Part shown: positions 14,718 to 32,800 of the stretch, in pieces
Layout: each line of letters begins with the position of its first letter
Position numbering within the stretch: the first letter of the stretch is position 1
Virus record (IMG/VR): IMGVR_UViG_3300048839_001124
Location: 1 to 58,385 of that record
Strand: one strand, 5' to 3'
From: a virus
Taxonomy: Duplodnaviria; Caudoviricetes
DNA: 58,385 nt
The notes under the pieces: generated by a model
The model's database searches: none
Seen by the model: only the letters and a program-made list of their open reading frames with translations
What the model was told of the DNA's origin: nothing
Made by a program: the position numbers and the translations under genes

Positions 14718-15191
14718 ATGAAAAACTATAGACTATGGCGAGAAGCAGCAAAAGCTTTCAAAGCTTTTTCAGAATACGATGATGTAATTTATCAAACAGT
14801 TGGCTCAACAGCTTGGCATTCAGACCCAATCAATGGATTATATGGACAAGTGCGTGATTCACACATGAATACTTTACTATCAATTATTAGTGAAGGCAAA
14901 GAAACAGAGTATTGGGCTTTGCATGAAAAGTTTGATAGTCCAGGCCATAGAACAGGTAAACCAGTTGCTTGGTATAAAACAGAATTTAATACTAAAGATC
15001 AAAAAAATATTACAACTAGAAAAGGTCAAACAGGCTTTATTCCAGAACAATTAGAGAAAGTTTTTAAACTACCTGAACGTAGAGGCTATATGTTAGCTCT
15101 TAGTATGTATAATGATTTAGTTAAAATTGAAAAACAATGGAGAAAAAAGAATGAAAAAGCAGCTGCTAGTTCAAAAAGACGTAAGCGCTAA
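14718..15191 (+). CDS. Hypothetical protein
   Basis: 157-aa ORF abutting the ligase gene, GAGGAG RBS. Confidence 0.6.
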   Translation: MKNYRLWREAAKAFKAFSEYDDVIYQTVGSTAWHSDPINGLYGQVRDSHMNTLLSIISEGKETEYWALHEKFDSPGHRTGKPVAWYKTEFNTKDQKNITTRKGQTGFIPEQLEKVFKLPERRGYMLALSMYNDLVKIEKQWRKKNEKAAASSKRRKR

Positions 15192-15813: not shown

Positions 15814-16265
15814 GTCAAGAAGCTTATATAGTAATGATGCTTTTTGTAAATGCTTTTTTGTTTTATATTTTGATGCGCGTTATTAAGCTTACTAAACAAG
15901 CTAAGGAGATGAGTGTATTTACTGATCAACCAGCTATTCCAGACTGTAAAAGACACGAATGGTCTAAAACCTATGTATATGAAAATAATACATCAGACAA
16001 AGTAATGTATTGTAAAGAATGTGGCTATATATCAGATGATAAAAACAGATATTTTAAGGCTCCGATGCTAGCCAAATTAAGAAAACAAAGTGATTTATCT
16101 GCTGCTTTTTATTTAATAGATAAAAGTATAAAAGAAGAATTCCTTCAAGGACTTAAAACTAGAACAGATATAGAAAATTCAGTTGCGTTAGAAAAGTTGA
16201 TATTAGACTTAGAGAATAGCAAACAACGTATGCTATCTGAGAAGTTTGAACTTATGAAAATGTAG
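15810..16265 (+). CDS. Membrane-anchored protein with putative Zn-binding CxxH/CxxC motif
   Basis: N-terminal TM helix; DCKRHEW...YCKECGY. Confidence 0.6.
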   Translation: MSQEAYIVMMLFVNAFLFYILMRVIKLTKQAKEMSVFTDQPAIPDCKRHEWSKTYVYENNTSDKVMYCKECGYISDDKNRYFKAPMLAKLRKQSDLSAAFYLIDKSIKEEFLQGLKTRTDIENSVALEKLILDLENSKQRMLSEKFELMKM

Positions 16266-16269
16266 GATT

Positions 16270-16878
16270 ATGGAAGAAGAGAAACTAAACGAATACACTG
16301 AATTTGAAAGCAAGTATCGCACAACTGCTGATATGGAAACTCGCTTTAAGCGATTGGCTATGACAGATTGTGGCATGAAAGAATTTATATATGTTGAAGG
16401 GCCAGATGTATATTTTGTTAAATCAGGCACAGATGACTTTAAGCGTTATCGAAAAGCATCTTGGGAACCAGTTTCTGGTAGAGCAGAAGTAACCACTAAA
16501 CGCAAACCAACTGGTGCTAAAAATAATGTAAACCGTATTGAAAAAAATCTTAGAGTAGATGGCAATGAACCAGCATTGGTTAGACAAACTATAGAAGACG
16601 ATGGGTTTGAGTATAATTTTGAAATTTGGAAGTCTTGTCATATATACTCTAATGAAGAAGCAACTCTAGTTTTTTATTGTGTAGTAGAAACAACTCCTGG
16701 GGTTAAATATAAAGAAGACTATTTTATTGAGATTGAGTTAGCTGAAAGTACTATACACAATCACACAGAAGAGGAAGCTTGGGCTATTTTAATGAAATAT
16801 GAAAAAATGCTTGAACCATTAGGCATTCACGCTCAAAAGCGACTTAGAAAAAGTCTGTTTGAAATGTATAGGCGCTAA
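16270..16878 (+). CDS. CYTH-domain protein (class IV adenylate cyclase/triphosphatase family)
   Basis: N-terminal ExExK (EFESKY), DVYF, RIEKNL, FIEIEL, C-terminal RKSLFEM. Confidence 0.8.
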   Translation: MEEEKLNEYTEFESKYRTTADMETRFKRLAMTDCGMKEFIYVEGPDVYFVKSGTDDFKRYRKASWEPVSGRAEVTTKRKPTGAKNNVNRIEKNLRVDGNEPALVRQTIEDDGFEYNFEIWKSCHIYSNEEATLVFYCVVETTPGVKYKEDYFIEIELAESTIHNHTEEEAWAILMKYEKMLEPLGIHAQKRLRKSLFEMYRR

Positions 16879-16879
16879 T

Positions 16880-16987
16880 ATGTCAGCTAGTTTATATATT
16901 TTTATTCTAATGCTCTTTGTAAATTCTAAGACCGCTGGATTAGTATTTTTATTTTGGCTAATTAGTTTGTTTATTGACTTTACTTGA
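16880..16987 (+). CDS. Small hydrophobic peptide (35 aa)
   Basis: Manual translation MSASLYIFILMLFVNSKTAGLVFLFWLISLFIDFT*; fills the gap between the CYTH and aminotransferase genes. Confidence 0.45.
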   Translation: MSASLYIFILMLFVNSKTAGLVFLFWLISLFIDFT

Positions 16988-16994
16988 AGGTAAC

Positions 16995-17960
16995 ATGTAC
17001 GATTTTGGCTTTGGCGACTCATTTGCTATTAGAGAATCTTTATCTAATTTTATTTCTACTCAATCTTTAATGGATTGCACACCGTATTTGGGTTATGCTT
17101 CTAAACATGATTATTCTAATTTAGAAAAGCGTATCCTTCAAATAGTTAAAAATAGTACAGGAACAGACTATAAATACTGTATATTAGTTTCAGGCGCTCA
17201 AATGGGCGTAGCCGCTGGACTTAAAGCATTAGAAAAAAACTTTGGAGAATGGGTTTTTCATGATGATTTATACTTCTTACGTTATCCACAATTAATCAAA
17301 ACATTGGGCTTGACTAGAATGAATAGACAGTGGTTTGATCACGATGGAGGTATACTTTTAACAGCTTCTCCATCAAACCCGACTGGAGAAATTGATAAAG
17401 AGTTTGTTTATAGAGCAGAAAGCACTATTTGGGACGCAGCGTACCACAATGAGATATATACTTCTCCAGTAACTTCGGCTTATTTGCCTAGACCTAATCA
17501 CAGTATGATGGTTGGCTCATTAGGTAAGCTTACTGGCATTAATGGCTTACGATTAGGTTGGGTAGCTACTAATGACGCATTATTGGCTGAAGAAGTAAAG
17601 CTGCAGCACTACAATCTGACTCTTGGAGTATCTACTACTAGTTTAGGCATACTAGAAAATTTGCTTAATAAAGTAAATCTAACAGACTTCTTTATTAACG
17701 CAAACCACGCTCTAAACGATAATCGGTCTGAACTATCTAAATTAGAATACTTGTTTGCTAGGCCAGTGCCTAAGTATGGAATGTTCTGGTTTACTGAAGC
17801 TGATAGTGCAGCAAAAAAGTTATTAGAAAAAGCTAAAGTTACTTACGTAGAAGGAAAAGAGTGCGGTGGAAACGCTGATACATTAAGAATAACTATGGGC
17901 CAAACTCGATCTTTGACTAAAGATATGGTTAAGACTGTTTTAAAAGAGGACAAAAAATGA
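16995..17960 (+). CDS. PLP-dependent fold-type I aminotransferase/C-S lyase (alliinase/TAA1-like)
   Basis: SPSNPTG, IWDAAY, GSLGK(PLP)LTGINGLRLGW, LRITMG; ATG 16995 follows GAAGG. Confidence 0.85.
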   Translation: MYDFGFGDSFAIRESLSNFISTQSLMDCTPYLGYASKHDYSNLEKRILQIVKNSTGTDYKYCILVSGAQMGVAAGLKALEKNFGEWVFHDDLYFLRYPQLIKTLGLTRMNRQWFDHDGGILLTASPSNPTGEIDKEFVYRAESTIWDAAYHNEIYTSPVTSAYLPRPNHSMMVGSLGKLTGINGLRLGWVATNDALLAEEVKLQHYNLTLGVSTTSLGILENLLNKVNLTDFFINANHALNDNRSELSKLEYLFARPVPKYGMFWFTEADSAAKKLLEKAKVTYVEGKECGGNADTLRITMGQTRSLTKDMVKTVLKEDKK

Positions 17961-18265
17961 AAACTAAACTAAATAAAAAGAAAACTGAAATTAAAATCTC
18001 TGTAACTAAAGGCATGTTTAAAACTAAAAACAGAAAGCTAGATAAAGCAGCTAATGAAGTGATGAAAGAGATTGAAGCACACTTTAAAGCTGAAGGTAAA
18101 AAAGCTTGGCCATTGTCTGCTAGACACTATATTACTGACATTTTTTATAAAGCTTATGGTGAACAGTTAGAAAACTATCTATTCAAAGCTTTATTTAAAA
18201 CAGGCAAATATATGCTTAAGTCAGGTAAGAATGGTGGATTGGTCATTGATAGGGCTAAAAAATGA
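17957..18265 (+). CDS. Hypothetical basic protein
   Basis: ORF track; ATGA coupling, GAGG RBS. Confidence 0.55.
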   Translation: MKTKLNKKKTEIKISVTKGMFKTKNRKLDKAANEVMKEIEAHFKAEGKKAWPLSARHYITDIFYKAYGEQLENYLFKALFKTGKYMLKSGKNGGLVIDRAKK

Positions 18266-18465
18266 AAATCATTCCTGAGTATGGTTTGTTAGCTATGTTA
18301 GGCGCACTACTAGGTACTTTTGGTTTATGCTTCATTATGGAAAAATTGTTGGGCCAGTATGGAGCTATACCAAGCCTGATTGGTGGATTAATCTTAGGTA
18401 TGGAAGCTAAAAAATTAGCTATAAAGTACAGCAATGATAAAGAAAACAGTAACAAAGATAATTGA
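18262..18465 (+). CDS. Small membrane protein (2 TM segments)
   Basis: Two hydrophobic Gly-rich segments and a charged C-terminus. Confidence 0.5.
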   Translation: MKIIPEYGLLAMLGALLGTFGLCFIMEKLLGQYGAIPSLIGGLILGMEAKKLAIKYSNDKENSNKDN

Positions 18466-18613
18466 CACAGTTAAAGAAAATCCTATAAAGACTGCTATAA
18501 TAGTTTTTGTACCCTTTGGTATACCTTTAGTAAGCGCCTATATATTGTACGATAAAATAAAGAATGAACACAAAAAAGTATCTAAGAAAGTCGATGGCTC
18601 CAAAGAACCATAA
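18434..18613 (+). CDS. Small single-TM protein (59 aa, not in the ORF track)
   Basis: Manual translation MIKKTVTKIIDTVKENPIKTAIIVFVPFGIPLVSAYILYDKIKNEHKKVSKKVDGSKEP*. Confidence 0.45.
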   Translation: MIKKTVTKIIDTVKENPIKTAIIVFVPFGIPLVSAYILYDKIKNEHKKVSKKVDGSKEP

Positions 18614-18818
18614 ATTGGCCAAAGAAGCTTTTGAGTTAGGTAAATATACTGTTGACGAAAGAGGCGCTATCAATCTTGGCTCATGGTCTAACGTAGTTAA
18701 ACTAGCTAGGTCTACTGGACTCAAGTCTAGAAAAGCCAGAGTCATCCGAAAGCGAGCAAAGCAGTGCATCCATTATCTTATAACACTAGGAATGATCAAT
18801 GACCCAGAAAAGGTTTAG
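18564..18818 (+). CDS. Hypothetical basic protein
   Basis: ORF track; same strand as neighbouring genes. Confidence 0.5.
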   Translation: MNTKKYLRKSMAPKNHKLAKEAFELGKYTVDERGAINLGSWSNVVKLARSTGLKSRKARVIRKRAKQCIHYLITLGMINDPEKV

Positions 18819-19041
18819 ATATAATTTATTATTAGCTGTTAAGCTTTTGCTGTTGGTTCTTAGAAATCCGCATCTGCGTTTCGGTCAAATATTGGTTGTG
18901 TTCGAATATGTAAAGCACACTCGACCAGTAAGGCAAGAAACAGCCGACGCGCACAGGGTAGAGTGGAAAGACGAATTCTACCTTGAGCCGAAAGAACTCT
19001 CTGAGAGAGTATCGAAACGCTGGAATAATATTAAGGCTTAA
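18799..19041 (+). CDS. Hypothetical phage protein (PxLRFGQ motif)
   Basis: NPHLRFGQIL...DEFYLE pattern typical of small phage proteins. Confidence 0.55.
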   Translation: MTQKRFRYNLLLAVKLLLLVLRNPHLRFGQILVVFEYVKHTRPVRQETADAHRVEWKDEFYLEPKELSERVSKRWNNIKA

Positions 19042-19450
19042 ACCAACGCTTACCCGATGCTGGAGCTACGGTTTGAAAATGACACCAATTACTTGTAGCT
19101 GAAAAATCTTCCATCCACAAGCCAACTTCTTCTAACAAAGTTTCATTCTCAGTACACCATTTTTGTAAATCTTGTTTAGGGTCTGCTATATCTACAGCTT
19201 GGCCAAACAAATGTTTACTCTTTTTTGGAACTTTGGACTCATCAAAAGGTAGCCCTTTTCTTTCAGCTATTTGACGGTAAATTCTTAAATGATCTTCCAT
19301 AGTTCTTAGGCCACTAGTCACTGTCATAGGTTTGCCGTAAGCTTTTCTAATTTTATTTATACGTTCTAATAAAATATTAAGCTCAACTTGAATTTCTTCT
19401 GATTGATCTTCTAATTTTTTACCTTTAAGCAATTCAGACATAGATAGCAT
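19031..19450 (-). CDS. Peptidase M15 family endolysin (Zn D-Ala-D-Ala/L,D-peptidase)
   Basis: VTSGLR, SKHLFGQAVD (SxHxxGxAxD), WCHFQ; start moved to ATG 19450 after AGAGG RBS. Confidence 0.85.
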   Translation of the reverse strand: MLSMSELLKGKKLEDQSEEIQVELNILLERINKIRKAYGKPMTVTSGLRTMEDHLRIYRQIAERKGLPFDESKVPKKSKHLFGQAVDIADPKQDLQKWCTENETLLEEVGLWMEDFSATSNWCHFQTVAPASGKRWFKP

Positions 19451-19481
19451 ATAAACCTCTTCTTTGGGTAAAGATTGAGAA

Positions 19482-19667
19482 TTACTTTGTTTTGGACTTT
19501 TTTGGAAAAATTGGAATAGGTTTTTCAAGATGCTTATTAAGTTCATTTTTACCGTCCTTATCGTGACAGTATCCACACGAAGGACACTTTTTATATCCAA
19601 GAATAGCCAATTTGGGCTCCAACATATCAAGCATATAAGCTATGCAAATCGGACAAATATTATTCAT
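19482..19667 (-). CDS. Small zinc-ribbon protein
   Basis: CPIC...CPSCGYC; overlaps the stop of the upstream endonuclease gene. Confidence 0.5.
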   Translation of the reverse strand: MNNICPICIAYMLDMLEPKLAILGYKKCPSCGYCHDKDGKNELNKHLEKPIPIFPKKSKTK

Positions 19668-20127
19668 TTTTACTCAAATATTCTAAGGCTGAAAGCACTA
19701 AATCCTTACTGTCTTTTAGGCAGCCTATACCTTTATTGCAATTATCGCAAAGGAGACCTCTAATCTTGCCAGTAGAGTGATTATGATCTATACAAAACCT
19801 TTTTTTGTGCTTATTTACTGGATTGTTTGTTTTACAAATAGCACATAAGCCACCTTGTTCCACAAGAAGTTTTTCATATATTTCTAATGAAGCACCGTAT
19901 CGCCATCTTAATTTATAATCTTTTCTTTTATCTGGATTTTTTCGTTGATATGATAAAGCCTTTATTTTCAGGACTTCTTTGTTGGATTTCTTATATAAGC
20001 TTTGAACCTTTTTGTCACAGCCTTTACATCGGCTTCTTTTTCTAAAGGGTTTACTTTTTGTTGGATTTGCATTAAAGCTTTCAATAGGAAGTTCTACTGC
20101 ACAACAAGTACAAATTTTTGTTTCCAT
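19660..20127 (-). CDS. Endonuclease VII-family (HNH) homing endonuclease
   Basis: QGGLCAIC, IDHNHSTGKIRGLLCDNCNKGIG; N-terminal CxxC..CxxC; GGAGG RBS. Confidence 0.88.
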   Translation of the reverse strand: METKICTCCAVELPIESFNANPTKSKPFRKRSRCKGCDKKVQSLYKKSNKEVLKIKALSYQRKNPDKRKDYKLRWRYGASLEIYEKLLVEQGGLCAICKTNNPVNKHKKRFCIDHNHSTGKIRGLLCDNCNKGIGCLKDSKDLVLSALEYLSKNE

Positions 20128-20171: not shown

Positions 20172-20534
20172 TTAAGGCCTTCTTTTTCTTAAGCTCTTAA
20201 CTGTCTCAAAGACAGGCACTTCAATATAAGTTTGTAACTCAACTTGATTGCCAGAAGCGTCCATTATGGGATTTCCTTCTGAGTCGAAAGCTTGCTTCTT
20301 TATTGGTTGACCTTGATCACATAAACAAGGCTGCCTAACCGTGCCGACCTGGACTTGAACCATCTCTGGAACAAGGTCGTAAGCCAATTCGTCGGCCAGA
20401 TCGTTAGGCACCGGAATGTGCTCTACTTGGCCTGGGTTGCCCCATGGGCCTCCAAACTTAGAGATGTTTGGCTCGTTTGACTCATAGATATGAAGAGTGG
20501 CTCCGGTATTTTTGTCTACTATGGCTATCTTCAT
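20172..20534 (-). CDS. Hypothetical protein (tail-fibre associated)
   Basis: 120-aa ORF coupled to the fibre chaperone gene; GC-rich. Confidence 0.6.
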   Translation of the reverse strand: MKIAIVDKNTGATLHIYESNEPNISKFGGPWGNPGQVEHIPVPNDLADELAYDLVPEMVQVQVGTVRQPCLCDQGQPIKKQAFDSEGNPIMDASGNQVELQTYIEVPVFETVKSLRKRRP

Positions 20535-20899
20535 TACTCATAATCCTGAGACAGTTCTAGTTCGGCAAAGGCGTCAAAATCTCTTATGCTTTCTACAGAC
20601 TCTAGTCCGTCAATCTCTGTCTGAGCCGCTTCGGGAAGGTCTCTTAATATATTTGCATCGGCCTTGATCGCCGTAGTAGAGGCACTGGTTTTCTGAGCTA
20701 TAAGGAAAGCAACGTCATTTTTCTGAAGCATGGCGTTTCTTCTGGCTCTAATCTCGGCCATCTTGTTTCTTCGAGCAAGGTTCAGTTCCTCGGCGGCAAC
20801 CTCTTCGGCGGCCACTTCGGTATACCCTGGAGGAATAGAGCCGTTAAGAGAGATCAATTCCATCACATTGTTTTCAGAATCCTTGATTAACTTTTTCAT
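20534..20899 (-). CDS. Tail fibre assembly chaperone-like protein
   Basis: AEIRARRNAMLQKND...ILRDLPE motif; immediately downstream of a fibre gene. Confidence 0.65.
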   Translation of the reverse strand: MKKLIKDSENNVMELISLNGSIPPGYTEVAAEEVAAEELNLARRNKMAEIRARRNAMLQKNDVAFLIAQKTSASTTAIKADANILRDLPEAAQTEIDGLESVESIRDFDAFAELELSQDYE

Positions 20900-23097
20900 T
20901 ATTCAGACTCCTCTTCATCGGCAAGCTCTCCATAAAACGCTAAGCAAAAAGATCCAGTCACCTGAGCACCAGATACGTTATATGTAATAATTTCGACCAT
21001 ATTTGATCTTTGTGTATCTATTCTAATGCCAGACACTCCAGCATTTCCACCAAATAAATTTATTGAAGAAACAGCTATATATTTATTAGTTTTAAATGGT
21101 TTTTCAAAAAATATATCTTTTACAGCAGCAGAGATTGATAAAACCGAACTTATATTATAAGAATCTTCTATTCTATTATTAAAAGCATCAAATAATACCC
21201 AAGCTTTGGCCTTGCTCAAGTCTATGCCGCTTTGGCTGGTTTCTTTTTGAAGCTTGATTGCTGGGCCAACCGACAGAGAGCCAGCCTTATCATTGGGAAA
21301 GTGAATTTTAGAATCTATGAAAGCGCCAGTGATCTCTAGTCCGCCAGTGCCAGCGGTTTTTGTAATCTTAATTGTGTGTTGGCCAAGGCCGAGGCCAGAA
21401 AACTCGATTCTTACTGGCTCATTGTTTGCTGTGCCAGCTGCGGTGTAGCTGCCTCCGCCTCCGTTGGTCACGTTGCCTCGCACTACGCCGGAGGCGTTCA
21501 GCGCTCCGTCGATCTCGACTGAAAATGTAACTGATGCAGTACTTTCCTGCAACACAGCGACTACGCTGTCTCCGAAAAAGGTTAATTCTGAAGACTGGGT
21601 TGCTGTAGTAGTAAAGAAAACAAAGCCAGCCAAGCTATTTACAGAAGAGGCGTCTAAGGACGTAGTCCAGCCTCCGCCGAGATACAGCCACTCTCTGGTA
21701 TTGGCCTTAAATAACGAGCCTCTAGGAGTCTGAAATGCGTCAGCGGCCAATTCTCCAGCGGCGGTGCTTGCGTCAAAGTCGGCCATCAAATAGTATTCGC
21801 ACACCTCAACGGCCCCATCGGGAATTGACGGCTTCTTAGGGCCGTAAACGATGAAGTCAGAAATTGCTATAGCAGCTGCACCAGATATATACAGTATTTG
21901 TACCGTATGAGTGCCATACGGAAGCCCAGAGACCAGCTTAACAAACCTTTGCGAACCTGCATTTAGAGGGCCATTACTTAGTATTACATTTCCGTCCACT
22001 AGTATGGTATAGTTGGAGCTATCTGACACAGTCCTAGAATTAAATATATCTAGCCCAGTTCCTACAAAAGTTAAAGTTATGGAATCATTTGCCAAAGCGT
22101 GTACGACTCCATTGTCAAGTACCAATACGTCATTTCCAACTAATGTGGTAGTTCCATCATTTAGAGTAAAAGCTCTATTTGACGACACTCCGGCCAGTGT
22201 GCCGAAGTCGTCCGCTCTGACTGCGCCGAACTCCCTGAAATTGTACTTTCTAATAACCTCTTCGTTGGCGTGGTTGGCCGACGATAGATTAAGTTGAGAG
22301 CCGTCGGTTTGCTGAATGACCTTGCCCATCTGGCCGTCTTTGGAGTATATCACTACCCTTCCGCCACGACCATTTAAAACCGGATTGTCGTCAAAGCCAG
22401 AGTTGTAGTCTAATATTTGTAATTCAGGATTAGTATATTTCAATCCACCAACAAAAGCTTCGCCTTGGGGGATTCTGATTTGGCTAGACTGATTCAGTAC
22501 CTCGAAGCCGCTGACTCTGAGTCCGGCCACCGCCGCGTTGCGAACCCTGACTGTGTGAGTGCCTAGAGTGAGACCAGCCGCAACCTTTAGTATTTGGTTC
22601 GGGCTGTAGTTTCTAGCTCTAAGAATGGTGGAGTAGGCCAAGGTCAGGTTTGCCCCTTCGGTGCCGTTGTCCACCACGGCCCTGACGTCCATGCTCGCCG
22701 CAGGAACGATGAGTAAATTTAAACCAGTGCCGTAGAAAGTCACTTCTAAGTAGTCGTTTACTAGAGTCGTTATGGAGTAGCTTCCGTTGGTGTCGGACAG
22801 CTGGTTCCACGTACCCACGAAGCGAAGCCTGTCGTCCGACGACTTGTAGACAAGCTCGCCGTTAGGGCCTTTCTCATCGCTGGATGGCTTAATAGTGGTT
22901 ACGTGAACCCTTTCGACGCCCATGACTGGCTTGAGGGTCTGCTCTGGGTCTGACAGGCGCCTGGGGTTGCCCTGAAGATCGACAATGTTGCTGAACGGCG
23001 CGGACATCTTCGGTGGATTCAGAAAGGTAAACTCACTAGCTTTTAACCCAAGAGACTGGCCTACGTTCGCTATGCTTGATTTAGTTTTTAGTGCCAT
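20899..23097 (-). CDS. Tail fibre/receptor-binding protein (3 beta-sandwich repeats plus tip domain)
   Basis: Three TF(x)G(T)G...(V/I)DG...GLxxGxHT(V/I)x(I/V) repeats; C-terminal AKAWVLFD...SYNISSV domain; paralogous to the C-terminus of 26849-32866. Confidence 0.7.
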   Translation of the reverse strand: MALKTKSSIANVGQSLGLKASEFTFLNPPKMSAPFSNIVDLQGNPRRLSDPEQTLKPVMGVERVHVTTIKPSSDEKGPNGELVYKSSDDRLRFVGTWNQLSDTNGSYSITTLVNDYLEVTFYGTGLNLLIVPAASMDVRAVVDNGTEGANLTLAYSTILRARNYSPNQILKVAAGLTLGTHTVRVRNAAVAGLRVSGFEVLNQSSQIRIPQGEAFVGGLKYTNPELQILDYNSGFDDNPVLNGRGGRVVIYSKDGQMGKVIQQTDGSQLNLSSANHANEEVIRKYNFREFGAVRADDFGTLAGVSSNRAFTLNDGTTTLVGNDVLVLDNGVVHALANDSITLTFVGTGLDIFNSRTVSDSSNYTILVDGNVILSNGPLNAGSQRFVKLVSGLPYGTHTVQILYISGAAAIAISDFIVYGPKKPSIPDGAVEVCEYYLMADFDASTAAGELAADAFQTPRGSLFKANTREWLYLGGGWTTSLDASSVNSLAGFVFFTTTATQSSELTFFGDSVVAVLQESTASVTFSVEIDGALNASGVVRGNVTNGGGGSYTAAGTANNEPVRIEFSGLGLGQHTIKITKTAGTGGLEITGAFIDSKIHFPNDKAGSLSVGPAIKLQKETSQSGIDLSKAKAWVLFDAFNNRIEDSYNISSVLSISAAVKDIFFEKPFKTNKYIAVSSINLFGGNAGVSGIRIDTQRSNMVEIITYNVSGAQVTGSFCLAFYGELADEEESE

Positions 23098-23119
23098 AAT
23101 TTATCCTATCGTCTCCATA

Positions 23120-24208
23120 TTAAAATCTAGCGTCCGATACCCATTGGCCTGAGTGTCCGTTAACTGCGTTAGTAATGGCCGTATTTGCTACGTTAAATCC
23201 ACTTACTCCGTTAGAGCCTGCGGAAATAGCAAAAGAAACAGGAGTTCCACCTCTATCAAAAGTTCCAACCGCTCCTGTTACTGTATTGTAAAAAGTTACC
23301 GTTGGTGTGGCCCTTTTTGAAGTCTTATAATGAACTTGAACCACAGCATTGCCTGATACAGTACTTATAGATATAACAAAAAGTGTTCCAGCCGTAGCGG
23401 CAGGCGTTCCTGGGGTTACGTCTAAATCGTAACTCTTCTCGTAGTATCTCTGACTCATAGCCAATTCATCTTGAAAATTCTTACCAGCTCTAACAAAGTT
23501 ATATCCAGCAGCAGTCAGAGCAGACCAGTCTCCAGGCAGAACCATTACTCCAGTAATATTAAAATCATGAGTAGTTCCAGTAAGCCAAGAAGTATCTTCA
23601 CCTATACCGCTAGAAAAGTTACCTGCTACCCATTGATTTAATGATGATGTTTGATAAGTAGTTCCAGTGACTATGTCCCAACCAATGACTGCGCCTGCTC
23701 CGTTGGTTCTTTCTACAGTGCCTGGGCAAGAGGATATAGCTGGAAAAGATAAAACTTTTAATTCCCAAGTGTTTGCTGAAGCTATATTATATTGCTGAAC
23801 GTATGAGTGACTAAAAGAAGCGTTTCTAACTGAGCAGCTTCTGTTAGAAGCTACAGAAGATTTAACCCAAAATATAAGTGACCATTCATTGTTGTATATT
23901 CTATTAAGGTCATAACCTTCTACGTGATAATGCATAATTTGTCTAGTGCCAGCAGCTAACGTACCAGCAGCAGTTTTAGATACTTGGTTTGAGTAAATCA
24001 AATTAGTGCCAGATGGAGTAGAAGATTGTCTAGAGTTAGTCATAGTTACTCCAGACGAGATGTTGTTATACTGGAATAACACTCCACCATAGGCTGAAGT
24101 ATTATTTGCTACGGAACGGGAAGTTCCTTCAGGCCAAAGTTCCATACCGCCATCAATTACAAGATTGGATTCAAGACGATTTATACGTGGACTAAGATTT
24201 TGCTTCAT
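23120..24208 (-). CDS. Tail fibre-related protein
   Basis: NLVIDGGMELW start, ELAMSQRYYEKSY and KRATPTV motifs typical of phage fibre proteins. Confidence 0.7.
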   Translation of the reverse strand: MKQNLSPRINRLESNLVIDGGMELWPEGTSRSVANNTSAYGGVLFQYNNISSGVTMTNSRQSSTPSGTNLIYSNQVSKTAAGTLAAGTRQIMHYHVEGYDLNRIYNNEWSLIFWVKSSVASNRSCSVRNASFSHSYVQQYNIASANTWELKVLSFPAISSCPGTVERTNGAGAVIGWDIVTGTTYQTSSLNQWVAGNFSSGIGEDTSWLTGTTHDFNITGVMVLPGDWSALTAAGYNFVRAGKNFQDELAMSQRYYEKSYDLDVTPGTPAATAGTLFVISISTVSGNAVVQVHYKTSKRATPTVTFYNTVTGAVGTFDRGGTPVSFAISAGSNGVSGFNVANTAITNAVNGHSGQWVSDARF

Positions 24209-24210
24209 AG

Positions 24211-24726
24211 TTAGTTAATCCTTATAAAAATATTTACAGCAATATTTTTAGGTCTAGTTTCTGTAGATGTTCTTGCTCCGACAGAATTGCTTGCATTAAA
24301 AGTAACATCTGATCCGGCATTGCCTCCAGATGCTATACCATTATTGCCAGCAGCAGACGCTGTTCTAGTGAGCGCTCCTGACGCTACATGAGTTCCAGCA
24401 GTAGAAATAGTGCCAACATTTGTTATTGATCCAATTATATTTTGAAGAGCATCGTTTTGAAAATGACCCAAAGCTCTTTCGCCAGCAGCATCCTCATTGC
24501 CATCTGCTCTACCATTGTTTTTACCACGCAGAAATTGTCCACGAGCATCGGGCACATTAGATATTCCAAATTGAGTAGCTAATTTGCTTCCTGCAACAGA
24601 TCTACCATCACATAGAACCCAATTAGATCCTCTGAGTGCTTGAAACTGCGCTTCGCTTAAAATAGAATGCACTATATCGCCTACCGTAGAAACATCGTTA
24701 TTACTTTGTCGTCTTGATTTTGCCAT
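24211..24726 (-). CDS. Tail collar-domain/short fibre protein
   Basis: WVLCDGR, VPDARGQFLRG, QNDALQNI, ETRPKNIAVNIFIRI. Confidence 0.85.
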   Translation of the reverse strand: MAKSRRQSNNDVSTVGDIVHSILSEAQFQALRGSNWVLCDGRSVAGSKLATQFGISNVPDARGQFLRGKNNGRADGNEDAAGERALGHFQNDALQNIIGSITNVGTISTAGTHVASGALTRTASAAGNNGIASGGNAGSDVTFNASNSVGARTSTETRPKNIAVNIFIRIN

Positions 24727-24727
24727 A

Positions 24728-26089
24728 TTATAATCCTAACCATTCGCGAATAGTTTTCTTTTCGATTTTGGTGATTTTTACTTGAGTAAAAATTTCATTA
24801 TCACCAAAAGTTACTGCTGCTCCGCCAATAGCTGCACCTGAAGCTCTCATTTGTATTTCAAATATAGTTGGGCCATTTGTAGAAAATGCGCCCATTATTA
24901 CGCTAGAGTCTCCATCAGTATTTCCAGCAGCTGCTACGTTTTGATCATTAACGGCGCGACCTATTAATACATCAGTTCCACTGGTTATATTTCTTAATTT
25001 AGCTTTGCCAGCAGAACCAGAAGTGTTTGTTACAAATGGACAATCTGCTTCTATAATATAATTTCCTTCTTGAAGAGTAAACTGATTAGAGCTTAAACTA
25101 CAAAAAGTTAAATCGCCTTCTTGAGTATTTAAAGTTCTAGCAGCATAAGATCCTACAGACAAAGCCCCTGCTGCCGTTCCAGAAGGCCTTACATCTTTTA
25201 AATAAGTAGTTTTTCTAATTTCTAATTCTTGATCTAAAATATTTTCTAAATCTAAAACTCTGTCACCAAATGCTTTCAAATCTACGTTGTTCGGAGCGGC
25301 TTGAAAGTCCGTCTCTTCTACGTCGGCCAAAGCAGCCACAGTGGGCACTAATGCGTCGATCTGGCCTTGCAATGCTTCAATCAAGGCAAGCTGAGAGCCA
25401 TTCGGTCTCTCAACCAAGGCCCCAACTGGAATGGCCGAAACTGCTCTGTCATTGATCAGGTCTACGTTGTTAAATCGGATTAAGGTGCCTAGTCCAGCTC
25501 CAGCGTGGACCTCGTAGTAGTCGCCTGTCACACCTGGGCCTGGAGGATTGTTGCCTGTGTTTCTGAACACAAGTTGTCCGTCAACAAGAATCATATATAC
25601 GCCATGCTGAGCAATAGCAGAAAATTTACCTACTTCAAAAGGTACACCGATGTTGAAGTCTGATTGAGTGGCAGCTAGTGTACCTGAGATAGGTTGACTA
25701 GAAGCATCTACTAAATTTACAGAAGTCCTAGCATTATGGTCAATGATAATTTCAAATACTTCATTTGCTTCTGCTTCAAAGAGTAGCTTAATCGTAGATG
25801 CTCCGTTAGCTATCCACGCTAGATTTTTTATAAGTGGTCCACGAAGAGAAGAAGCTAATCGAACGTTGTCTTGATAAAACTGAATATTAGTCGAAGTCAA
25901 TTCAGAAGGACTTGGAGCAGCATAGTTTACGGCTGTAGAAGGAGTGGTGAGTGAGCCAAGCTGAATAAGAGTGTCTCCTTCAGCGGCTTCGTGAAGAGCG
26001 CGAGCAACCTTGAAGCCGGTGTTGGTCAATAAGGACTGAGCTACCGGAAGTTTGCGAATTGATTTTGAGCCTTTGCCTGTTACTGACAT
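24728..26089 (-). CDS. Tail fibre-related protein with C1q/TNF-like C-terminal domain
   Basis: Coiled segment followed by RTLNT...NQFTLQEGNYII...FEIQ beta-sandwich; in the fibre cluster. Confidence 0.6.
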   Translation of the reverse strand: MSVTGKGSKSIRKLPVAQSLLTNTGFKVARALHEAAEGDTLIQLGSLTTPSTAVNYAAPSPSELTSTNIQFYQDNVRLASSLRGPLIKNLAWIANGASTIKLLFEAEANEVFEIIIDHNARTSVNLVDASSQPISGTLAATQSDFNIGVPFEVGKFSAIAQHGVYMILVDGQLVFRNTGNNPPGPGVTGDYYEVHAGAGLGTLIRFNNVDLINDRAVSAIPVGALVERPNGSQLALIEALQGQIDALVPTVAALADVEETDFQAAPNNVDLKAFGDRVLDLENILDQELEIRKTTYLKDVRPSGTAAGALSVGSYAARTLNTQEGDLTFCSLSSNQFTLQEGNYIIEADCPFVTNTSGSAGKAKLRNITSGTDVLIGRAVNDQNVAAAGNTDGDSSVIMGAFSTNGPTIFEIQMRASGAAIGGAAVTFGDNEIFTQVKITKIEKKTIREWLGL

Positions 26090-26090
26090 A

Positions 26091-26849
26091 CTATAAATCC
26101 TCTATCGGAGTGTTAGAAAATCCTTGAATCGGAACGCGAGCGTCCACCGACCATGGACAGTTTACTGGAATATTGCCGTTTACGCCTTGCAATTTTCCAC
26201 CGAAACTTGCCCCCGAAAAGCTGGGGAATAGTTCAGTCGCGCCAGCTATAGATATAAGCCCTCCGTCACTGGCCGATGCTGTAAGAAAGGCATGTTGCCC
26301 GAAGCAAACCCCTGTGGTGATTCTGCTAGCTACAACCAAGTTAGTTGGAAGCGAAATGCTGCACTGAGCCGCCGCTCCGCCTGTTTTGGTATATCTACCC
26401 AATACATGAATGAACTCGCCGTCTAAAGTGTAGCTAAAGTGATCGGTCACGCTGATAGTCATATTGGTGTATATTGGCGTATAGTTAATTACCGAGCCGC
26501 CCGAAAATCTTGGCTTTCCCTTAATTTCGATAAACGCACCAAAGCCAGAACCTGTAGCGTTGGCCATCAAAGATCCAACAAGCTTCCACCTTGAATAGCC
26601 AGTTGGGCCAGTAGAATTTTGATTTAAACTAATGACTAAAGAAACCACTCCGGCGGACTGAACGGCGAACACCTGATAACGAGTGTTAGCCGTCACAGCT
26701 GGAAGAGCTACTGATAATTGAGTGGTTACTTTAAACTGTTGTCCACCAATAGTCAAGTAAACTGGACTAGAGACAGAAGCAGCCATCAAGATGTTACCAG
26801 CAGAGTGAGACAGTGTTCCAATTTTATCGTCCCGTAGTTTTTGTCCCAT
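26091..26849 (-). CDS. Tail fibre-related protein
   Basis: ANTRYQVFAV...PTGYSRWKLVG domain followed by YTP...ISLP...VPIQG tip; in the fibre cluster. Confidence 0.6.
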   Translation of the reverse strand: MGQKLRDDKIGTLSHSAGNILMAASVSSPVYLTIGGQQFKVTTQLSVALPAVTANTRYQVFAVQSAGVVSLVISLNQNSTGPTGYSRWKLVGSLMANATGSGFGAFIEIKGKPRFSGGSVINYTPIYTNMTISVTDHFSYTLDGEFIHVLGRYTKTGGAAAQCSISLPTNLVVASRITTGVCFGQHAFLTASASDGGLISIAGATELFPSFSGASFGGKLQGVNGNIPVNCPWSVDARVPIQGFSNTPIEDL

Positions 26850-29800
26850 TAGTCAAGCTCCCTGACTGATAAAATTCTATTATTGGCAACAAGCCCTGTG
26901 GCTGCACTTACACGCCAATATACGTCTATTTTATGATATCCTGGACTAACTTGAAGTCTATATAAAATTGTAAAACTTGCTGAAGCTACAGCTGAACCAG
27001 TATAAGCACTAGCCACTGGAGTTACCATTTTGCCATCTACATATATGAAAAATTCATTACCATTTCCAGTTGTATTATTATTATGTTGACCTGATGTTGA
27101 TAATTCTATTATACTTTTAGTAGTTTTAATTGTCAAACTTAATTCTGATAATGGTACAGCTGTAGTTGAAGTAGTAGATGTATTTCCTGATATACCTACA
27201 GCATTGCCCAAAACATTAGGCTGATTTACATCTTTCTTACTGAACTTTCTAAAATCAGCTACACCTTGAGAGCCAACAGCTAAGGTGTTTTGTAATACAA
27301 ATGGGCCATTGTCTTGATGAGAGTGTATTGGAGTGATAATATCTAAACATTCATTTTCAATTTTTAAATTAGCTGTTCCATTGTTAAATCTGATTGTATG
27401 CTTTCCAAGAGCTAATCCAGTTACAACAAAGCCGCAACCAGGAGTAACAGATACAGTTGCCTGTTGATCTAAAATACCAGTTGCTGAAGTAAAAGTGATA
27501 CCGCCGCCATAAACAGTAGCTGCTGCTGCTTGAGATGGATAATTAGTTGTGTTAAAAGTTAATCCATCAACAGTAACAGTAATATTATTAGAAGAGTTAG
27601 TGTCACCCATAAATCTAAAATCAAAACCTGTTCCATAAAAAGTATATTCAATATAAGCATTAAGTCTATTGCTAGAAATTTCAAATCCACAAATATTGTT
27701 TGCAGGCGTTACTCCAGGAATGCTCCAATCTACTGTTCCACCAGTACCATTTACATAAGTAAATTCTCTGGTTGCAAACTTTCTCAGCGTTCCAGTTGAA
27801 ATAGTACTTATTCCAGCAGTAGAATTTGGTGCAAAGTTAGCCAAAATATTATATGCGCCAATCTCTACCGCTCCATTTGGAAGAGTAGGAGTCTTTGGCT
27901 GATAAACTATAAATTTAGTAAAATAAAAAGATCCACTAGTATATGCAGATAATGTTAACCTTAATGTATGTGTTCCATACGGAAGACCAGAAGCTATTTT
28001 AGTATTTGCAATACCAGTAGGTGTTAAGTTAGTTATTGTAGCAGGCGTTGAACCATCAATAGAATATTGCACAGTACCCACTAAAGCTGAACCACTAGTT
28101 TCTATATCTATGCCAGTTCCAACAAAAGTAAATGTTATAGTTTGTGGTACTACTCCAGCCCAACCTACTCCTTCTATTCCATTTAGTGAATTTATAATCG
28201 AGCTGGTGGCTATTAAAGTAGTACTTCCATCATCTAAGGTAAAAACTGGTGTTGTAGGGGTACTTCCAAATCTACTAAAATCATCTGCTCTACCAGCTCC
28301 AAATTCTCTTGGAAAATATATTCTAGCTATTTCTTCATTTGAGTGATTAGCAGAAGCTAAATTTAGTTGAGAAGCATCTGTCGGCGTAACAGCTTTAGCT
28401 ACTGAACCATCAGCTTTTTGATAAACTAAAACTCTTCCACCACGAGTGCCAAGAGTGCCTGTTTCAAAGCCAGAATTATAAGCAGTAGTTTCTAAAATAG
28501 TATGAGTGCGCTTTTTGCCTTTATAAAGCTGAGCGCCTGGAGGTAATTGAATAAGTCCTGAAGTATTTTCATTTAGAACTTCAAAACCATAGATATTTAT
28601 TCCACCAGTTACATTATCATTTCTAATTTTAATTGTATGAATACCTAAAGTTAAACCAGACGCTACAGGTATAATATTATTAGGATTGTAATTTCTAACA
28701 TTTAGAACAACACTAGCTGTTGCTCCAGGCAATAGATTTGCTGAATCTGCTCCTCCATCAACGTTAGCTATATTTGATCTAACATCATTACCTAAAGCAG
28801 TTATAAAATTCAAGCCAGTACCATAAAAAGTTATTTCTACGTAAGCACCTACAGTAGTTGACAGTGGCCTAACTCCTGTTGTATCACTACTATTAATCCA
28901 ATTACCAACAAATCTAATTTGATTAAATTTATCATTTACTGCGCCAAAAACCTGTTCACCATTTGGCCCAAATTCATCTTGAAGCTGGTAAATCTGCTGA
29001 GTCATAATTCGATCAACTGCAAAGCGAGGCTTTAAATCTTGGCTTAGATCAGGAATTTGTGCTCGATTTTGAATTGCAGTGTTTGGTACTACAATCTTAG
29101 GCAAAATCATTGAGTCAGAAATTGAAGCTAACTCATCACCAATGTCAATCAAGTTAGATTGAATTTCAGAAATGGCTGCTGCGTTAGAGTCTGAATTGTC
29201 AATGACAGAAGCTTTAGTTTGTCTAAAGATAAGAACTATGTCTTCACCTGGAAAGTCAAAAGTGTCAGGCTCAAACTTAACTGTCTGGCCTTCAATACGA
29301 GCAACACCCTCTTCAATCGCATACATTTGACCACGATAAGGGTCAAGAATATCAAGCAATTCAGGGTCTGGAGTAAACGTCAACAAAAAGTCTGTCTTAT
29401 TCTCGTCGCCTGTGAAGTAGAATTTTTGGAAACGCTTTTCACCTGTAACTGAAGTTACACCGTTAGTTAAGCCGTAGTATAATCCATAACCTTCAGCGTG
29501 AGCCAAAGCTACGCTAGAAGTTACTCGAATAATTAAGTCATGTGCGCGACCGGAAACTACAGCCGCTTTAGTTGAAGCTGCTCCAGTCCAAACTGAACCA
29601 TCAAAAGTAGCGCCATTAGTTCCTGCGCCGTTTCTCCAAGATAAGTCTAATGTGCCAGCTTTATATCCAGCATCAGTAACCAAAACTAAGTGGTATGTTC
29701 CAGCAGTCAGAACTACGTCTGGAAGATCAAAGGTAACTGTTATGTCGCCTGTTCCACCTAAAGAAGCGGCTGAAATAATTTTAGCATCAGACTCAGAAAG

Positions 29801-32800
29801 AATATCTGCTACTGCTGTGCTTGGTACGCCTGCGTTATTTTTAACTAAACGCAAAGTAACTAAGCCAGTACCTACTCCACCATAATTCAAATTCAAGTCA
29901 ACAGTCTTGACTACAGAAGTAGTTGACAATGCTAATTGAGAAGAAAGTTCTTGTTGAGTAGTAGCATTAAGGGCTTGTCCAGCGCCTGAAGCTGCAACAG
30001 TTTGAAGAGCTTGGTTAGATACTTCTTCAGAGAATACATGGTACCCTCTAAAAGCATTTAAACCAATTTGCTCCATAGTCATTGTTTGCCAGTTTGTTCC
30101 ACCGTCACGAGAAATCTCGTAAGTAGCAGCTGCGTCAACAAAGCCAGTTAAGTAGTTTAAATATAGTTCGGCTTCAGTAATGTCTACGCCTTCATCTAAG
30201 AAAGACTGATCTAAGACATCTTGAGAAACCATTGTTTGGCCAATAGCAGTCCAAGCGAAAGTTCGCTTAGCTGGGCTATAAGCTCCAGTAGAAACAACGT
30301 CAATTTTGGTGGCTTTGTCGCGTCTAAAAATATTTTGGTCCATTAACTCAAAAGAGTTAACTGCAAAACGGTCTCTCAAAAGAGTATCTAAAGAAGATGC
30401 GTCTCCTGAACCGCCGCCTGAACCTGAACCAACTCCGAGCCTACGAGTTTGAACAACAGTGATTGTTCCAGCAATGTTTTGTACTTGGATTGCTCCAAGC
30501 TTAATGTCTCCTGTAATAACTGGTAGTGGAGCAGAAGCTTGAACAGCGTTAGCTGAATCACCAAAATCGATTTGAACTTGTGCTTCTTGGCGATTGTCAG
30601 CCAGTACGTTTCCTGGAATGAGAGATACACCGTACCAGTAATAGTGACCAACAGGAATAGTAAAAGGAGTAAAGTTAATGCCTAAAGCTGTTACGTCATC
30701 TTCTTTTAAGATAGCTCCAGTAGAGAAGTTAATTACTGCGCCTGTAAAGCTAAGGATGAATTCACCAACAACTTGGCTAAGAATATCTTGATCTAGTTGA
30801 GTAAAGTCTGCGCCAAGAATAGTTGCTTTGCTTACGTTAGAAGCGTGTTTATGTAATTTAAGTTGAGTAAGTCTGCGATTAATTTCTGCTAAAGCTCCAT
30901 CAAGCTCAAGATATTCTCCAGGCTTAATTAAGAAGCTCTTCATACCTACAGTTACGCCTGTAGACACTCTGCGAGCAATAATAACTGTATTGTCTGTAGC
31001 TACTACTGCGTCAACGTCAGCAACGTTAACTGTTAAGTTTGTTGCTACGCCTGCTGTGCGAACTAGCTCTACGTATGCTACGCTAGAAGCGTTTGGAAGC
31101 ATGATAGTCTGAGCTAAAATAGTATTTCGAACGTTAGTTAAACCAGGAATTTGAACGTATGCGTTAGCGCTAAGAGTTAACTCATAAGTGCCAGCATTAT
31201 CAACTAAACTCCACGTTCCACCTTCAATAACTTTTGAAGATCGATCTTGTCTGTCAGCAGCAGCAAAAGCTCCAGCAGCTGCATCTAAATCAGAAATAGC
31301 TGTAGTTAGTGGGTCGCCATCAGTAACATAATTGTTTGAAGCAAATTGTGGACTATTATCGGCCTCAGAAGTCGAACCAATAAACTGTAAAAGCTCTAAA
31401 GAAGTATTGTCAGAAACTTGTTGGCTTTCACCTTGCTCTAACTCGCCTGATTTAAAGCGAGTATAGATTTTTGGTACTGAGCCGCCGTTATCATCTCGGA
31501 AATAAAACCAATACATGTCAGCAGTAATTGGTGTTTCTTCTCTTAAAGCAAAGCGTAAATGTCTATCAGTTGATGGAGCACCAACAACGTTATATACGCC
31601 AAAAGCGTATTTAGCATTAATACCAGAAGGGCCAGTAGAAGCTCCAGCGTATGGAGTAGTTAAAGTAACTTGAGAAGCAGAATCTACTGAAAGAATTTCG
31701 TAATAACCTTCGTCACCTATACCGTCAATTTTAATATAGTCACCAGCGACTAAATCAACTGTCCAAGCTATTGCTCCAACAGAGTTAACTATGGCTGAAC
31801 CATTAGTAAAAATAAGGGCTGGAATAACAACTTGATCACGAACTAAATTGATGTAAGCTACTTGACCATCAGCTAAAGTAACGTCTGTTCCAGCAGCATA
31901 AGCAGAAATAGTATAAGTTAAGCGACTTCCAATAACTCTATTTCTAAGAGGAAAGTCCCAATTAAGTTTACCAGGAACTAGATCATCGTGGACTATTGTT
32001 GCGCGACCAGTAACTACTGTATTAACGCCGTCAGAACGAATACCAGAGATTGAACCTCCAGTACCTAACGAATACCAATAAATTCCACCTGTAATCTCTT
32101 GAATGATGGACATAACAGCGTCCATCCATTCTTTTTGAGATTTAATCTGTTTGTCTCCACCATGAAAAGGGTTTTGACTAGAAGTTGATGTAGGTGGGTT
32201 TTCAGTTCGGCCTTCTGGCTGATTAGTCCAAGGATAAGCGTAGCTTGGATTTGGTGCTGAAAAACCAGCAGTACCAAGTCTGAATAACATTGGTCTGCGA
32301 TCAGTAATAGAAGTTACGTTGTTTGCTGCGTCCGTTTGAACAATAGCCAAAGGCAGAGTGTCAGCAGCAAAACCAGTAGTCGTGACTTTAAAAATATAAG
32401 TCATTAACTGAGCTACTGGAAGAACCTTAGACGTTTCGATCTTATTGGTTGGATCCCATATAGCTCTTGGAGCTTGAGTAGAAGCGTCTGCTGCTCGATT
32501 AAAATCAATGCTTACATAGTTAGTAGAAGATGGAGCAAAAGAACCAATAACTTTATTATTAATAGTTGAGCTAAGAATTTCTACTGGAGTACCAGCAGCT
32601 ACTTTAAAAATAGTACCAGAAACTAAACTCGTAGTATGTAAAATAGCAGAGTCAGAAACTATGACAGATAGACCATTGGCTGAGTTACCAACCGCGCCAA
32701 CCATATTGAGTTCAAAGCCACGAATTACGTAACCAAGGTTTTCACCTGTAACTAAGGCTTCGACTGCTTCATCAAAATCAGATCGAACTGCACTCTCAAT

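Follow-up and report, generated by a model that had tools for sequence, protein, structure and literature searches.

Synonymous-site GC patchwork in the distal tail-fibre module of an uncultured AT-rich phage

The metagenome-derived viral contig IMGVR_UViG_3300048839_001124, an IMG/VR virus record of 58,385 bp analysed here over its whole length (the window), carries at positions 20172-26849 the distal tail-fibre (receptor-binding) module of an uncultured AT-rich phage, whose genome amounts to roughly 160 kb given that the record is estimated to be 36% complete. Inside the intact genes of this module, the guanine-plus-cytosine (GC) content switches abruptly and repeatedly, most strongly at third codon positions (GC3). 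We consider it probable that this patchwork arose by ordinary modular recombination, at conserved motifs, among homologous fibre genes of related phages that differ in base composition, and it is an unusually clear case of the known mosaicism of tail fibres, not a new system. The evidence comprises a mosaic at synonymous sites, patches that cross gene borders, module breakpoints relative to a sister contig, a family-wide uncoupling of gene segments, relatives of diverse GC content and a case of the same kind in the reverse direction.

Compositional patches within and across the fibre genes

The cluster consists of seven intact minus-strand open reading frames (ORFs), p252, p453, p171, p362, p732, p121 and p120 (Table 1). 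Matches to PHROG tail-fibre families were obtained for p732, p362, p171 and p453 and a weak fibre-assembly match for p121, which agrees with the receptor-binding role proposed in an earlier note on this DNA; p252 and p120 matched no family. The GC content of the cluster is 43.8%, compared with 35.4% in the remaining window and 36.3% in the window as a whole, and the standard deviation (SD) of 120-nt GC, taken in bins of 2 kb, is 0.070-0.086 between 20 and 28 kb, compared with 0.024-0.069 in the other bins. The six 60-nt hand counts by which the earlier note had illustrated the switches (10, 37, 19, 36, 11 and 34 of 60) were reproduced exactly. In 30-codon windows of p732, the SD was 0.189 for GC3 and 0.066 for GC at the first and second positions (GC1+2). 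In windows of 20 codons, GC3 ranged from 0.00 to 0.85 in p732 and from 0.00 to 0.60 in p453, compared with ~0.2 elsewhere, and GC1+2 of p732 stayed near 0.35-0.6. Taken over whole genes, GC3 is 0.47 in p732, 0.46 in p121, 0.44 in p120 and 0.42 in p252, and it lies between 0.16 and 0.32 in the 39 ORFs outside the cluster, apart from one at 0.39. Amino-acid composition is ruled out as the cause, because GC1+2 is nearly flat and the contrast is carried by four-fold degenerate sites. The earlier note had staked its reading on the contrast not disappearing at synonymous third positions; the contrast persists and is strongest there, so that the reading is not overturned on this point. A separate GC peak at 54-56 kb is due to amino-acid composition (GC1 0.545, GC3 0.22).

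When the codons of p732 were shuffled, the observed SD of 20-codon GC3 (0.208) was matched in none of 20,000 shuffles (mean 0.110, maximum 0.152; z 9.6), and the same was true of p453 (0.170 observed, mean 0.098, maximum 0.155, 0 of 20,000 as high; z 6.2). In a test of 46 ORFs with 1,000 shuffles, only these two genes reached the floor of p = 0.001, the next values being 0.002, 0.004 and 0.007. GC3 was then segmented by penalised optimal partitioning, which returned 0-1 change points in permuted controls and was used instead of greedy binary segmentation, which under-called alternating patches. Four change points were found in p732 and two in p453, none in p120, p121, p362, p171 and p252, and none or one weak change point in seven other long ORFs. 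The resulting segments of p732 have GC3 values of 0.60 (residues 1-305), 0.26 (306-413), 0.52 (414-633), 0.04 (634-687) and 0.29 (688-732), and those of p453 of 0.28 (1-173), 0.54 (174-271) and 0.15 (272-453). The GC patchwork as an observation is confirmed.

Its confinement to the cluster was stated nearly correctly, with the reservation that weak GC3 steps occur in the giant p2005, in the polymerase gene and in the last 35 codons of the baseplate-J-like p2180 and that GC3 is raised in the ORF at 35382-35801. GC3 is 0.46 over the said p2180 codons (37419-37523) and 0.39 over the minus-strand ORF, in surroundings of ~0.17. Because of these two small spots, the fibre cluster is not the sole patched place of the window.

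Joint segmentation of the concatenated cluster resolved five GC3-rich patches of 285-921 bp, designated H1 to H5, between AT-rich stretches of 198-2209 bp (Table 1). The discontinuity at synonymous sites, with GC3 segments spanning 0.04-0.61, disregards gene borders: H1 and H5 each run over two of them and are events at the DNA level. H2 ends at the motif NVDLKAFGDRV, where the AT-rich tip of p453 starts, and the patch at 21001-21198 is poorer in GC3 than even the genome background (4 of 66 compared with 0.2; p = 0.003). The earlier figure of one switch every ~100-600 bp turned out slightly generous, with robust segments of 198-2209 bp and a single 51-bp AT-rich dip inside H3 (22411-22461) that appears only at a laxer penalty. 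The reading frames are never broken, as had been claimed, all ORFs being intact.

The switches can be placed precisely in four cases, the profile-likelihood intervals for the first residue of the next segment being 302-309, 410-418 and 631-636 in p732 and 268-278 in p453, and less so in the remaining two, which have wide intervals (p732 681-712, p453 160-190). Five of the six change points lie at most four residues from a top-15% conserved motif block, which corresponds to a binomial p of ~0.02 given that about one third of positions would do so by chance. The first falls between NFREFGAVRADDFGT and AFTLNDGTTTL, the others at IVYGPKKPSI, at LSKAKAW, near RNTGN..GDYYEVHAG and at NNVDLKAFGDRV. 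The blocks concerned include DLSKAKAW, NVDLKAFGDRV and YGPKKPSIP, and the proximity to conserved motifs asserted earlier is modestly supported by these five, although not by a per-gene distance test (see below).

Predicted structures place several switches at domain limits. The AlphaFold2 model of p732, built on a 71-sequence alignment, is all-beta (predicted local distance difference test score, pLDDT, 86.1; predicted template modelling score, pTM, 0.78) and has a disordered linker (615-623) ahead of a separate C-terminal domain. According to this model, residues 306-413 would form one beta-sandwich, in agreement with the CE2_N-like Pfam match at 330-407, and the switch at 633/634 would mark the start of the C-terminal domain just past the linker. 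A Foldseek search of PDB with the model gave only generic multi-beta-sandwich or carbohydrate-binding-type matches (TM at most 0.16) and no specific fold. For p453, a model of modest confidence (pLDDT 67) that served only to place the helical neck predicts a beta body (28-221), helices at 232-255 and 271-285 and a beta tip (288-446), so that the switch at 268-278 would lie within the neck ahead of the tip.

Module borders in a sister contig and in the wider family

A 20-kb IMG/VR contig (L002) is syntenic with the window across the whole cluster, with 73-84% nucleotide identity in blastn blocks of at least 100 bases, and is uniformly AT-rich, GC3 being 0.15-0.23 in all seven cluster genes. Protein identity between the two reaches 77-88% in p453 1-173, p252 1-95, p362 1-265 and p2005 1001-1308. 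Along p453, it amounts to 85-95% up to about residue 280 and to 10-25% thereafter, with the collapse at ~280-292; in p252, it falls at ~100 from 87% (1-95) to 33% (96-252), and in p362 at ~265 from 77% (1-265) to 22% (266-362). Only 45-47% identity is left in p732, 56% in p121 and 25% in p171, and p120 is unrelated to the gene at its place in both syntenic relatives. Similarity to the sister is lost at or beside several of the composition switches. An extra 233-aa ORF of the sister (11818-12519 of L002, plus strand), located between the p171 and p362 counterparts, is missing from the window. The second syntenic relative (L004), with a locus GC of 41.6% and intermediate GC3, is nearer to the window than L002 in some short stretches of p732, e.g., residues 1-40 and 214-233.

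The direction of the compositional difference is seen at four-fold sites under identical residues. Sites with G/C in the window and A/T in L002 outnumber the reverse by 36:3 in p732 1-305, 24:5 in p732 414-633, 15:1 in p453 174-271, 14:2 in p252 96-252 and 8:0 in p121, whereas control segments are symmetric (p362 12:11; p2005 5:9, 15:18, 12:10, 11:13 and 9:12).

The p732 family has at least 481 relatives (E <=0.001 among 7,999 scored candidates), the best of them at 47% identity, on contigs of up to ~170 kb, and a scan of metagenome contigs yielded 32 p732 loci of 34-46% identity at a contig GC of 35-52%. The contigs that carry homologous fibre genes range in GC from 35-54%, and GC3 of these genes reaches 0.89; p453 homologues are among them at 50-54% GC and GC3 of 0.6-0.9, and these GC-diverse relatives are a possible donor pool. 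Among 99 proteins of the p732 family (4,851 pairs), the identities of four GC3-defined segments correlate only at 0.05-0.44. Most pairs with at least 80% identity in one segment have less than 50% in another (three of four for 1-305 versus 306-413), and how relatives rank by identity to the window in one segment is uncorrelated with their ranking in another (-0.13 to 0.23). Judged by these protein comparisons, the GC3-defined segments of p732 act as independent modules family-wide. In p453, a conserved N-terminal beta body is combined with a variable tip: three relatives are 85-93% identical over residues 1-271 and each has its own different tip, and the tip is at most 35% identical in 114 of the 115 aligned relatives.

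The patchwork also exists in the opposite direction. In a p453 homologue of a GC-rich relative, GC3 is 0.91, then 0.75 and then 0.18 over residues 333-442 (110 codons), and four IMG/VR records (L047-L050) carry it at 100% identity, the locus GC being 53-54% in L047 and L050. Of 95 long ORFs (at least 300 aa) in related loci, 20 contain one or more GC3 change points and nine contain two or more; the homologues in L025 and L026 contain domain-sized AT-rich patches in otherwise GC-richer genes.

Given that the window is a metagenome-derived contig whose switches lie close to conserved motifs, at which an assembler could jump between strains, the mosaic might exist in no single virus and result from AT-rich and GC-richer co-occurring strains joined at shared k-mers. 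We regard such a chimera as very improbable. Between genomes at GC3 0.15 and 0.6, long identical k-mers would be very scarce, conserved motifs included, all seven frames are intact over at least nine junctions, and the reverse-direction mosaic recurs without a difference in separate records. Moreover, exact full-length proteins are found on several contigs (three for p732, three for p453, four for p252, five for p121 and five for p120), and a 408-aa fragment identical to p732 325-732, spanning three change points, on a separate 3,588-bp contig, although these contigs may not be independent assemblies.

Origin of the patches

Modular recombination would account for the patchwork by several horizontal exchanges of domain-sized segments (~0.2-0.9 kb), each leaving a GC3 footprint that has not yet been ameliorated. 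At least three compositional classes of source would be needed: one resembling the resident genome (GC3 ~0.2-0.28), a GC-richer one (~0.45-0.68) and one of very AT-rich tips (~0.05-0.15). Crossovers would have occurred mostly in short family-conserved stretches that code for motifs (DLSKAKAW, YGPKKPSIP, NVDLKAFGDRV and the segment after NFREFGA..DDF), so that beta-sandwich domains, tips and the fibre-chaperone pair would be swapped whole and in frame. Homologous recombination during co-infection, presumably via the phage's UvsX-like recombinase, would be the route, free-standing endonucleases including the neighbouring endonuclease VII-family gene may help the exchange, and altered host recognition may be the outcome. 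The earlier note had suggested the phage's own RecA, UvsY and SSB as agents; a UvsX/RecA-like recombinase is indeed present and may act in the fibre mosaic, and no UvsY or SSB was detected among the window proteins at the thresholds used.

Several findings weigh against this explanation. No donor with a near-identical segment was found for any patch in INPHARED, IMG/VR, JGI metagenome contigs, GTDB genomes or a set of 5.8 billion proteins, and neither blastn of the whole region nor tblastn of p732 gave a match among 50,697 INPHARED phage records. No donor can be named because relatives reach at most 33 of 40 identities in any 40-aa window of p732, and the peaks are the conserved motifs themselves. 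The supposed patching from donors of different GC content is supported by GC-rich homologues within the same fibre family, but no patch has been mapped to its donor. The AT-rich patches of p732 are no closer to the sister (47% and 46%) than the GC-rich ones (53% and 41%), and third-party AT-rich donors must therefore be assumed for them. The association with motifs is modest, the mean-distance test per gene giving p = 0.43 for p732 and p = 0.10 for p453, and the p732 change point at 687/688 is 37 residues off any conserved block. Lastly, the GC3-rich residues 1-48 and 174-268 of p453 have diverged from the sister to no greater extent than the AT-rich residues that separate them. Since their divergence does not exceed that of the flanks, the donor would have to be a close relative with strongly shifted GC3, and none was seen among the relatives found. 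Among the other searches, megablast of window positions 1-20000 against INPHARED phages gave no match, a peptide-pattern scan of IMG/VR with p732 alone no relative, and the exact 41-nt junction pattern was present in 0 IMG/VR stretches in a scan from which the window's own record may be excluded.

The p453 patches are the point at which GC-biased repair has to be considered. If repeated crossovers produced heteroduplexes in the conserved flanks of swapped modules and their mismatches were corrected in favour of G/C, synonymous sites would go to GC in place and without a GC-rich donor. This may cover at least the protein-conserved patches (p453 1-48 and 174-268, p252 61-90 and perhaps p362 241-270) and is perhaps tied to the endonuclease VII-family genes of the phage, but we consider it unlikely. 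In the GC3-rich p453 patches, 44 synonymous codons have G/C in the window and A/T in the sister and three the reverse, compared with 11:13 in the stretch between. Divergence from the sister does not change along with this excess, with amino-acid differences of 19/143 in the patches and 17/125 in the stretch between and, in the same order, identity to the sister at codons with A/T kept in the third position of the window of 41/53 (0.77) and 57/79 (0.72). It also climbs toward the junction, from 4:3 (residues 151-180) over 9:0 and 7:1 to 14:1 (241-270), after which the AT-rich tip follows, and similar trends are seen in p252 toward residue 90 (2:4, 3:2, 10:2) and in the 30 codons ahead of the swapped C-terminus of p362 (7:2). 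The tip beside H2 is itself AT-rich, so that its co-import cannot account for the flank being GC-rich.

The same stretch of p453 shows no such effect in six relatives with available DNA and different tips, in which GC3 does not rise over the flanks (stretch/flanks: L002 0.20/0.24, L042 0.20/0.28, L043 0.70/0.69, L044 0.64/0.73, L046 0.35/0.39, L047 0.81/0.89). In the reverse case, GC3 is lower in the flank beside the AT-rich module (0.75) than distally (0.91), as predicted by co-import. Four of the six change points are sharp, with profile intervals of 6-11 codons, and not graded. Furthermore, p732, p121, p120 and p252 96-252 are GC3-rich and yet highly diverged from the sister, for which biased repair cannot account. 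GC-biased gene conversion is said to have been reported in bacteria by Lassalle et al. in 2015, and we know of no demonstration of biased conversion in phages. A literature search on GC-biased conversion brought up no paper on phage fibre genes among the titles listed, which include PMC11879095. The process is described for bacteria and eukaryotes. The window resembles it in the directional AT-to-GC synonymous excess in recombining stretches, but differs in that the excess is limited to one lineage and that most GC-rich patches have also diverged highly at the protein level.

A dedicated diversification system, as envisaged in the earlier note, would actively patch the fibre genes from stored or incoming cassettes by specific machinery, e.g., endonuclease VII-like or homing endonucleases together with UvsX. 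Such machinery might be sought in the endonuclease VII-family gene that adjoins the cluster and is missing there from either syntenic relative (L002, L004), in the two further endonuclease VII/HNH-like and two GIY-YIG homing-endonuclease genes of the window and in the UvsX-like recombinase. However, the window holds no DNA-level repeats or silent cassettes that match the region, self-blastn of the cluster against the window revealing no repeat that links it to elsewhere. Direct and inverted repeats are short and of low identity, the best inverted ones measuring 16-28 nt with 70-94% complementarity, and none brackets a tip. The absence of an invertase and a reverse transcriptase from the window, noted before, is upheld, and no repeat cassette was seen either: PHROG scans of 45 ORFs and Pfam scans of 38 ORFs of the window, which represents ~36% of the genome, detected no family of site-specific invertases and, together with a repeat scan, neither a reverse transcriptase nor a pair of template and variable repeats. 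The sister contig has the same gene order and is compositionally uniform, and the fibre genes of relatives show the same patchwork. We therefore give hardly any credence to a dedicated system, since nothing points to one; the pattern is as left by ordinary modular recombination.

The surrounding genome and known routes of fibre variation

Besides the genes in Table 1, the profile scans revealed a helicase, a primase and a ligase, and the proteases include two ClpP-like ones. The aminotransferase-like and subtilase-like genes are possible auxiliary genes. Of the free-standing endonucleases, three are endonuclease VII/HNH-like and two GIY-YIG; the endonuclease VII-family gene next to the fibre cluster may have a part in the mosaic. 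The 446-aa ORF may stem from the insertion of an endonuclease at the 5' end of a phosphoesterase gene, or ORF calling may have merged two genes. No Rfam family reached its gathering score in the window and no tRNA was found. The long structural block on the minus strand includes the 2180-aa p2180, located upstream of the cluster, and the 2005-aa p2005.

Residues 1256-1852 of p2005 are paralogous to p732 29-603 (37% identity). This paralogue was considered as a source of the AT-rich p732 domain and rejected, its identity of 35% at the amino-acid and 50% at the nucleotide level being no better than for other segments. The GC3 step of p2005 from 0.24 to 0.13 is found at residue 1308/1309 (~28942), ~50 residues inside the paralogous region, and over its last 300 residues the protein shares only 42% identity with the sister L002.

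Among cultured phages, the distant Myxococcus phage Mx1 is nearest, and its DnaE-type polymerase is 32.5% identical over 97% of the protein. With its 169.6-kb genome, Mx1 is the sole cultured phage that covers at least 80% of the window's polymerase. A full-length p732 homologue (40% identity) on a 108,852-bp contig (L038) belongs to a bin labelled uncultured Flavobacteriales, a weak hint at a Flavobacteriales host or at a phage contig binned with its host.

Table 1. Positions of compositional patches, fibre-cluster genes and other genes in the window
Feature	Positions	Strand	Remarks
H1, GC3-rich patch	25946-26866	-	GC3 0.43, GC 47.0%; last 5 codons of p2005, all of p252, p453 1-48
H2, GC3-rich patch	25286-25570	-	GC3 0.55, GC 53.7%; p453 174-268
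H3, GC3-rich patch	22183-23076	-	GC3 0.61, GC 52.1%; p732 8-305
AT-rich patch	21859-22182	-	GC3 0.26; p732 306-413, second beta-sandwich (CE2_N-like 330-407)
H4, GC3-rich patch	21199-21858	-	GC3 0.52, GC 51.2%; p732 414-633, between YGPKKPSIP and DLSKAKAW
Very AT-rich patch	21001-21198	-	GC3 0.06, GC 25.3%; p732 634-699, start of C-terminal domain
H5, GC3-rich patch	20331-21000	-	GC3 0.47, GC 46.3%; p732 700-732, all of p121, p120 1-68
p2005, giant fibre or baseplate-attached protein	26849-32866	-	AT-rich throughout, GC3 0.24 then 0.13
p252, fibre-cluster protein of no known family	26091-26849	-	residues 96-252 GC3-rich
p453, tail fibre protein	24728-26089	-	PHROG match
p171, tail-collar/fibre-like protein	24211-24726	-	AT-rich
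p362, tail fibre protein	23120-24208	-	AT-rich; swapped C-terminus (266-362)
p732, all-beta tail fibre protein	20899-23097	-	three beta-sandwich modules and C-terminal domain
p121, likely tail-fibre assembly chaperone (weak matches)	20534-20899	-	GC3 0.46
p120, no family	20172-20534	-	GC3 0.44
Endonuclease VII-family gene, immediately downstream of fibre cluster	19660-20127	-	GC3 0.23, native-like
Exonuclease-like ORF, separate, beside polymerase	121-747	+	profile scans
DnaE-type Pol III alpha replicative polymerase	707-4333	+	profile scans
Subtilase-like protease, replication-side block	4399-5235	+	
UvsX/RecA-like recombinase, candidate strand-exchange enzyme of the phage	7827-8882	+	profile scans
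Two adjacent ClpP-like/head-maturation protease paralogues	12197-12826, 12849-13490	+	
Class I/II aminotransferase-like gene, replication-side block	16974-17960	+	
446-aa ORF	34064-35404	+	GIY-YIG/SegE-like homing endonuclease (1-239) in frame with calcineurin-like metallophosphoesterase (235-434)
Two further endonuclease VII/HNH-like genes, structural block	44028-44684, 50063-50782	-	
GIY-YIG homing endonuclease, structural block	56142-57017	-	
Second, stand-alone phosphoesterase	57218-57982		

For the gp37/gp38 locus of T-even phages, modular recombination of fibre genes is already on record (passages of PMC12032242 that cite Tetart 1998 and Trojet 2011), and conserved glycine-rich motifs have been proposed there as recombination hotspots for the modular shuffling of gp38 (PMC12032242, citing Tetart 1998). 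As far as those passages describe that locus, the fibre cluster resembles it in that variable receptor-binding segments lie among short conserved motifs proposed as crossover points, that exchange is sub-genic and in frame, that the fibre and its chaperone or adhesin partner move together and that neither an invertase nor a reverse transcriptase is needed. In contrast to the T-even phages, the protein families are unrelated, as judged by the absence of a tblastn match in the 50,697 phage records, the units are whole beta-sandwich domains, the tip and flanking genes, the gap in base composition leaves GC3 footprints, and the exchange is deduced here from sequence. Alteromonas phages of different families also share a module of fibre plus chaperone (PMC10579305). 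The cluster shares with the general modular evolution of host recognition that no part of the genome is exchanged more than fibre genes and chaperones and that similarity to relatives breaks at module borders. It differs from those cases in that ~10 alternating patches in 6.7 kb are resolved by composition alone, in an uncultured family that spans 35-54% GC. Horizontal transfer of P2-type fibre genes was reportedly described by Haggard-Ljungquist in 1992.

Diversity-generating retroelements of the Bordetella phage BPP-1 Mtd type combine a reverse transcriptase with a pair of template and variable repeats and introduce adenine-specific changes. They likewise target a receptor-binding fibre tip, whereas the changes seen here comprise whole segments and are AT/GC-directional, and the window revealed no reverse transcriptase or repeat pair. 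Invertible fibre-tip switches (Gin of Mu, Cin of P1 and shufflons) rely on a serine or tyrosine invertase and on inverted crossover sites that flank alternative tips. The alternative C-terminal tips are a common feature, but an invertase and inverted repeats that bracket the tip were not found in the window.

The principle is thus known already, and the present case adds an example and a map to it but no mechanism. Were the AT-to-GC change in conserved flanks indeed local, a phage would offer evidence of biased repair and a counterpart of GC-biased gene conversion. The ~10 patches in 6.7 kb mark the places of crossover, and phages up to ~20 GC points apart exchange whole beta-sandwich domains, tips and the fibre-chaperone pair. 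The GC3-defined borders are testable module boundaries for the p732 family, a large uncultured fibre family that exchanges modules across hosts or lineages of unlike base composition.

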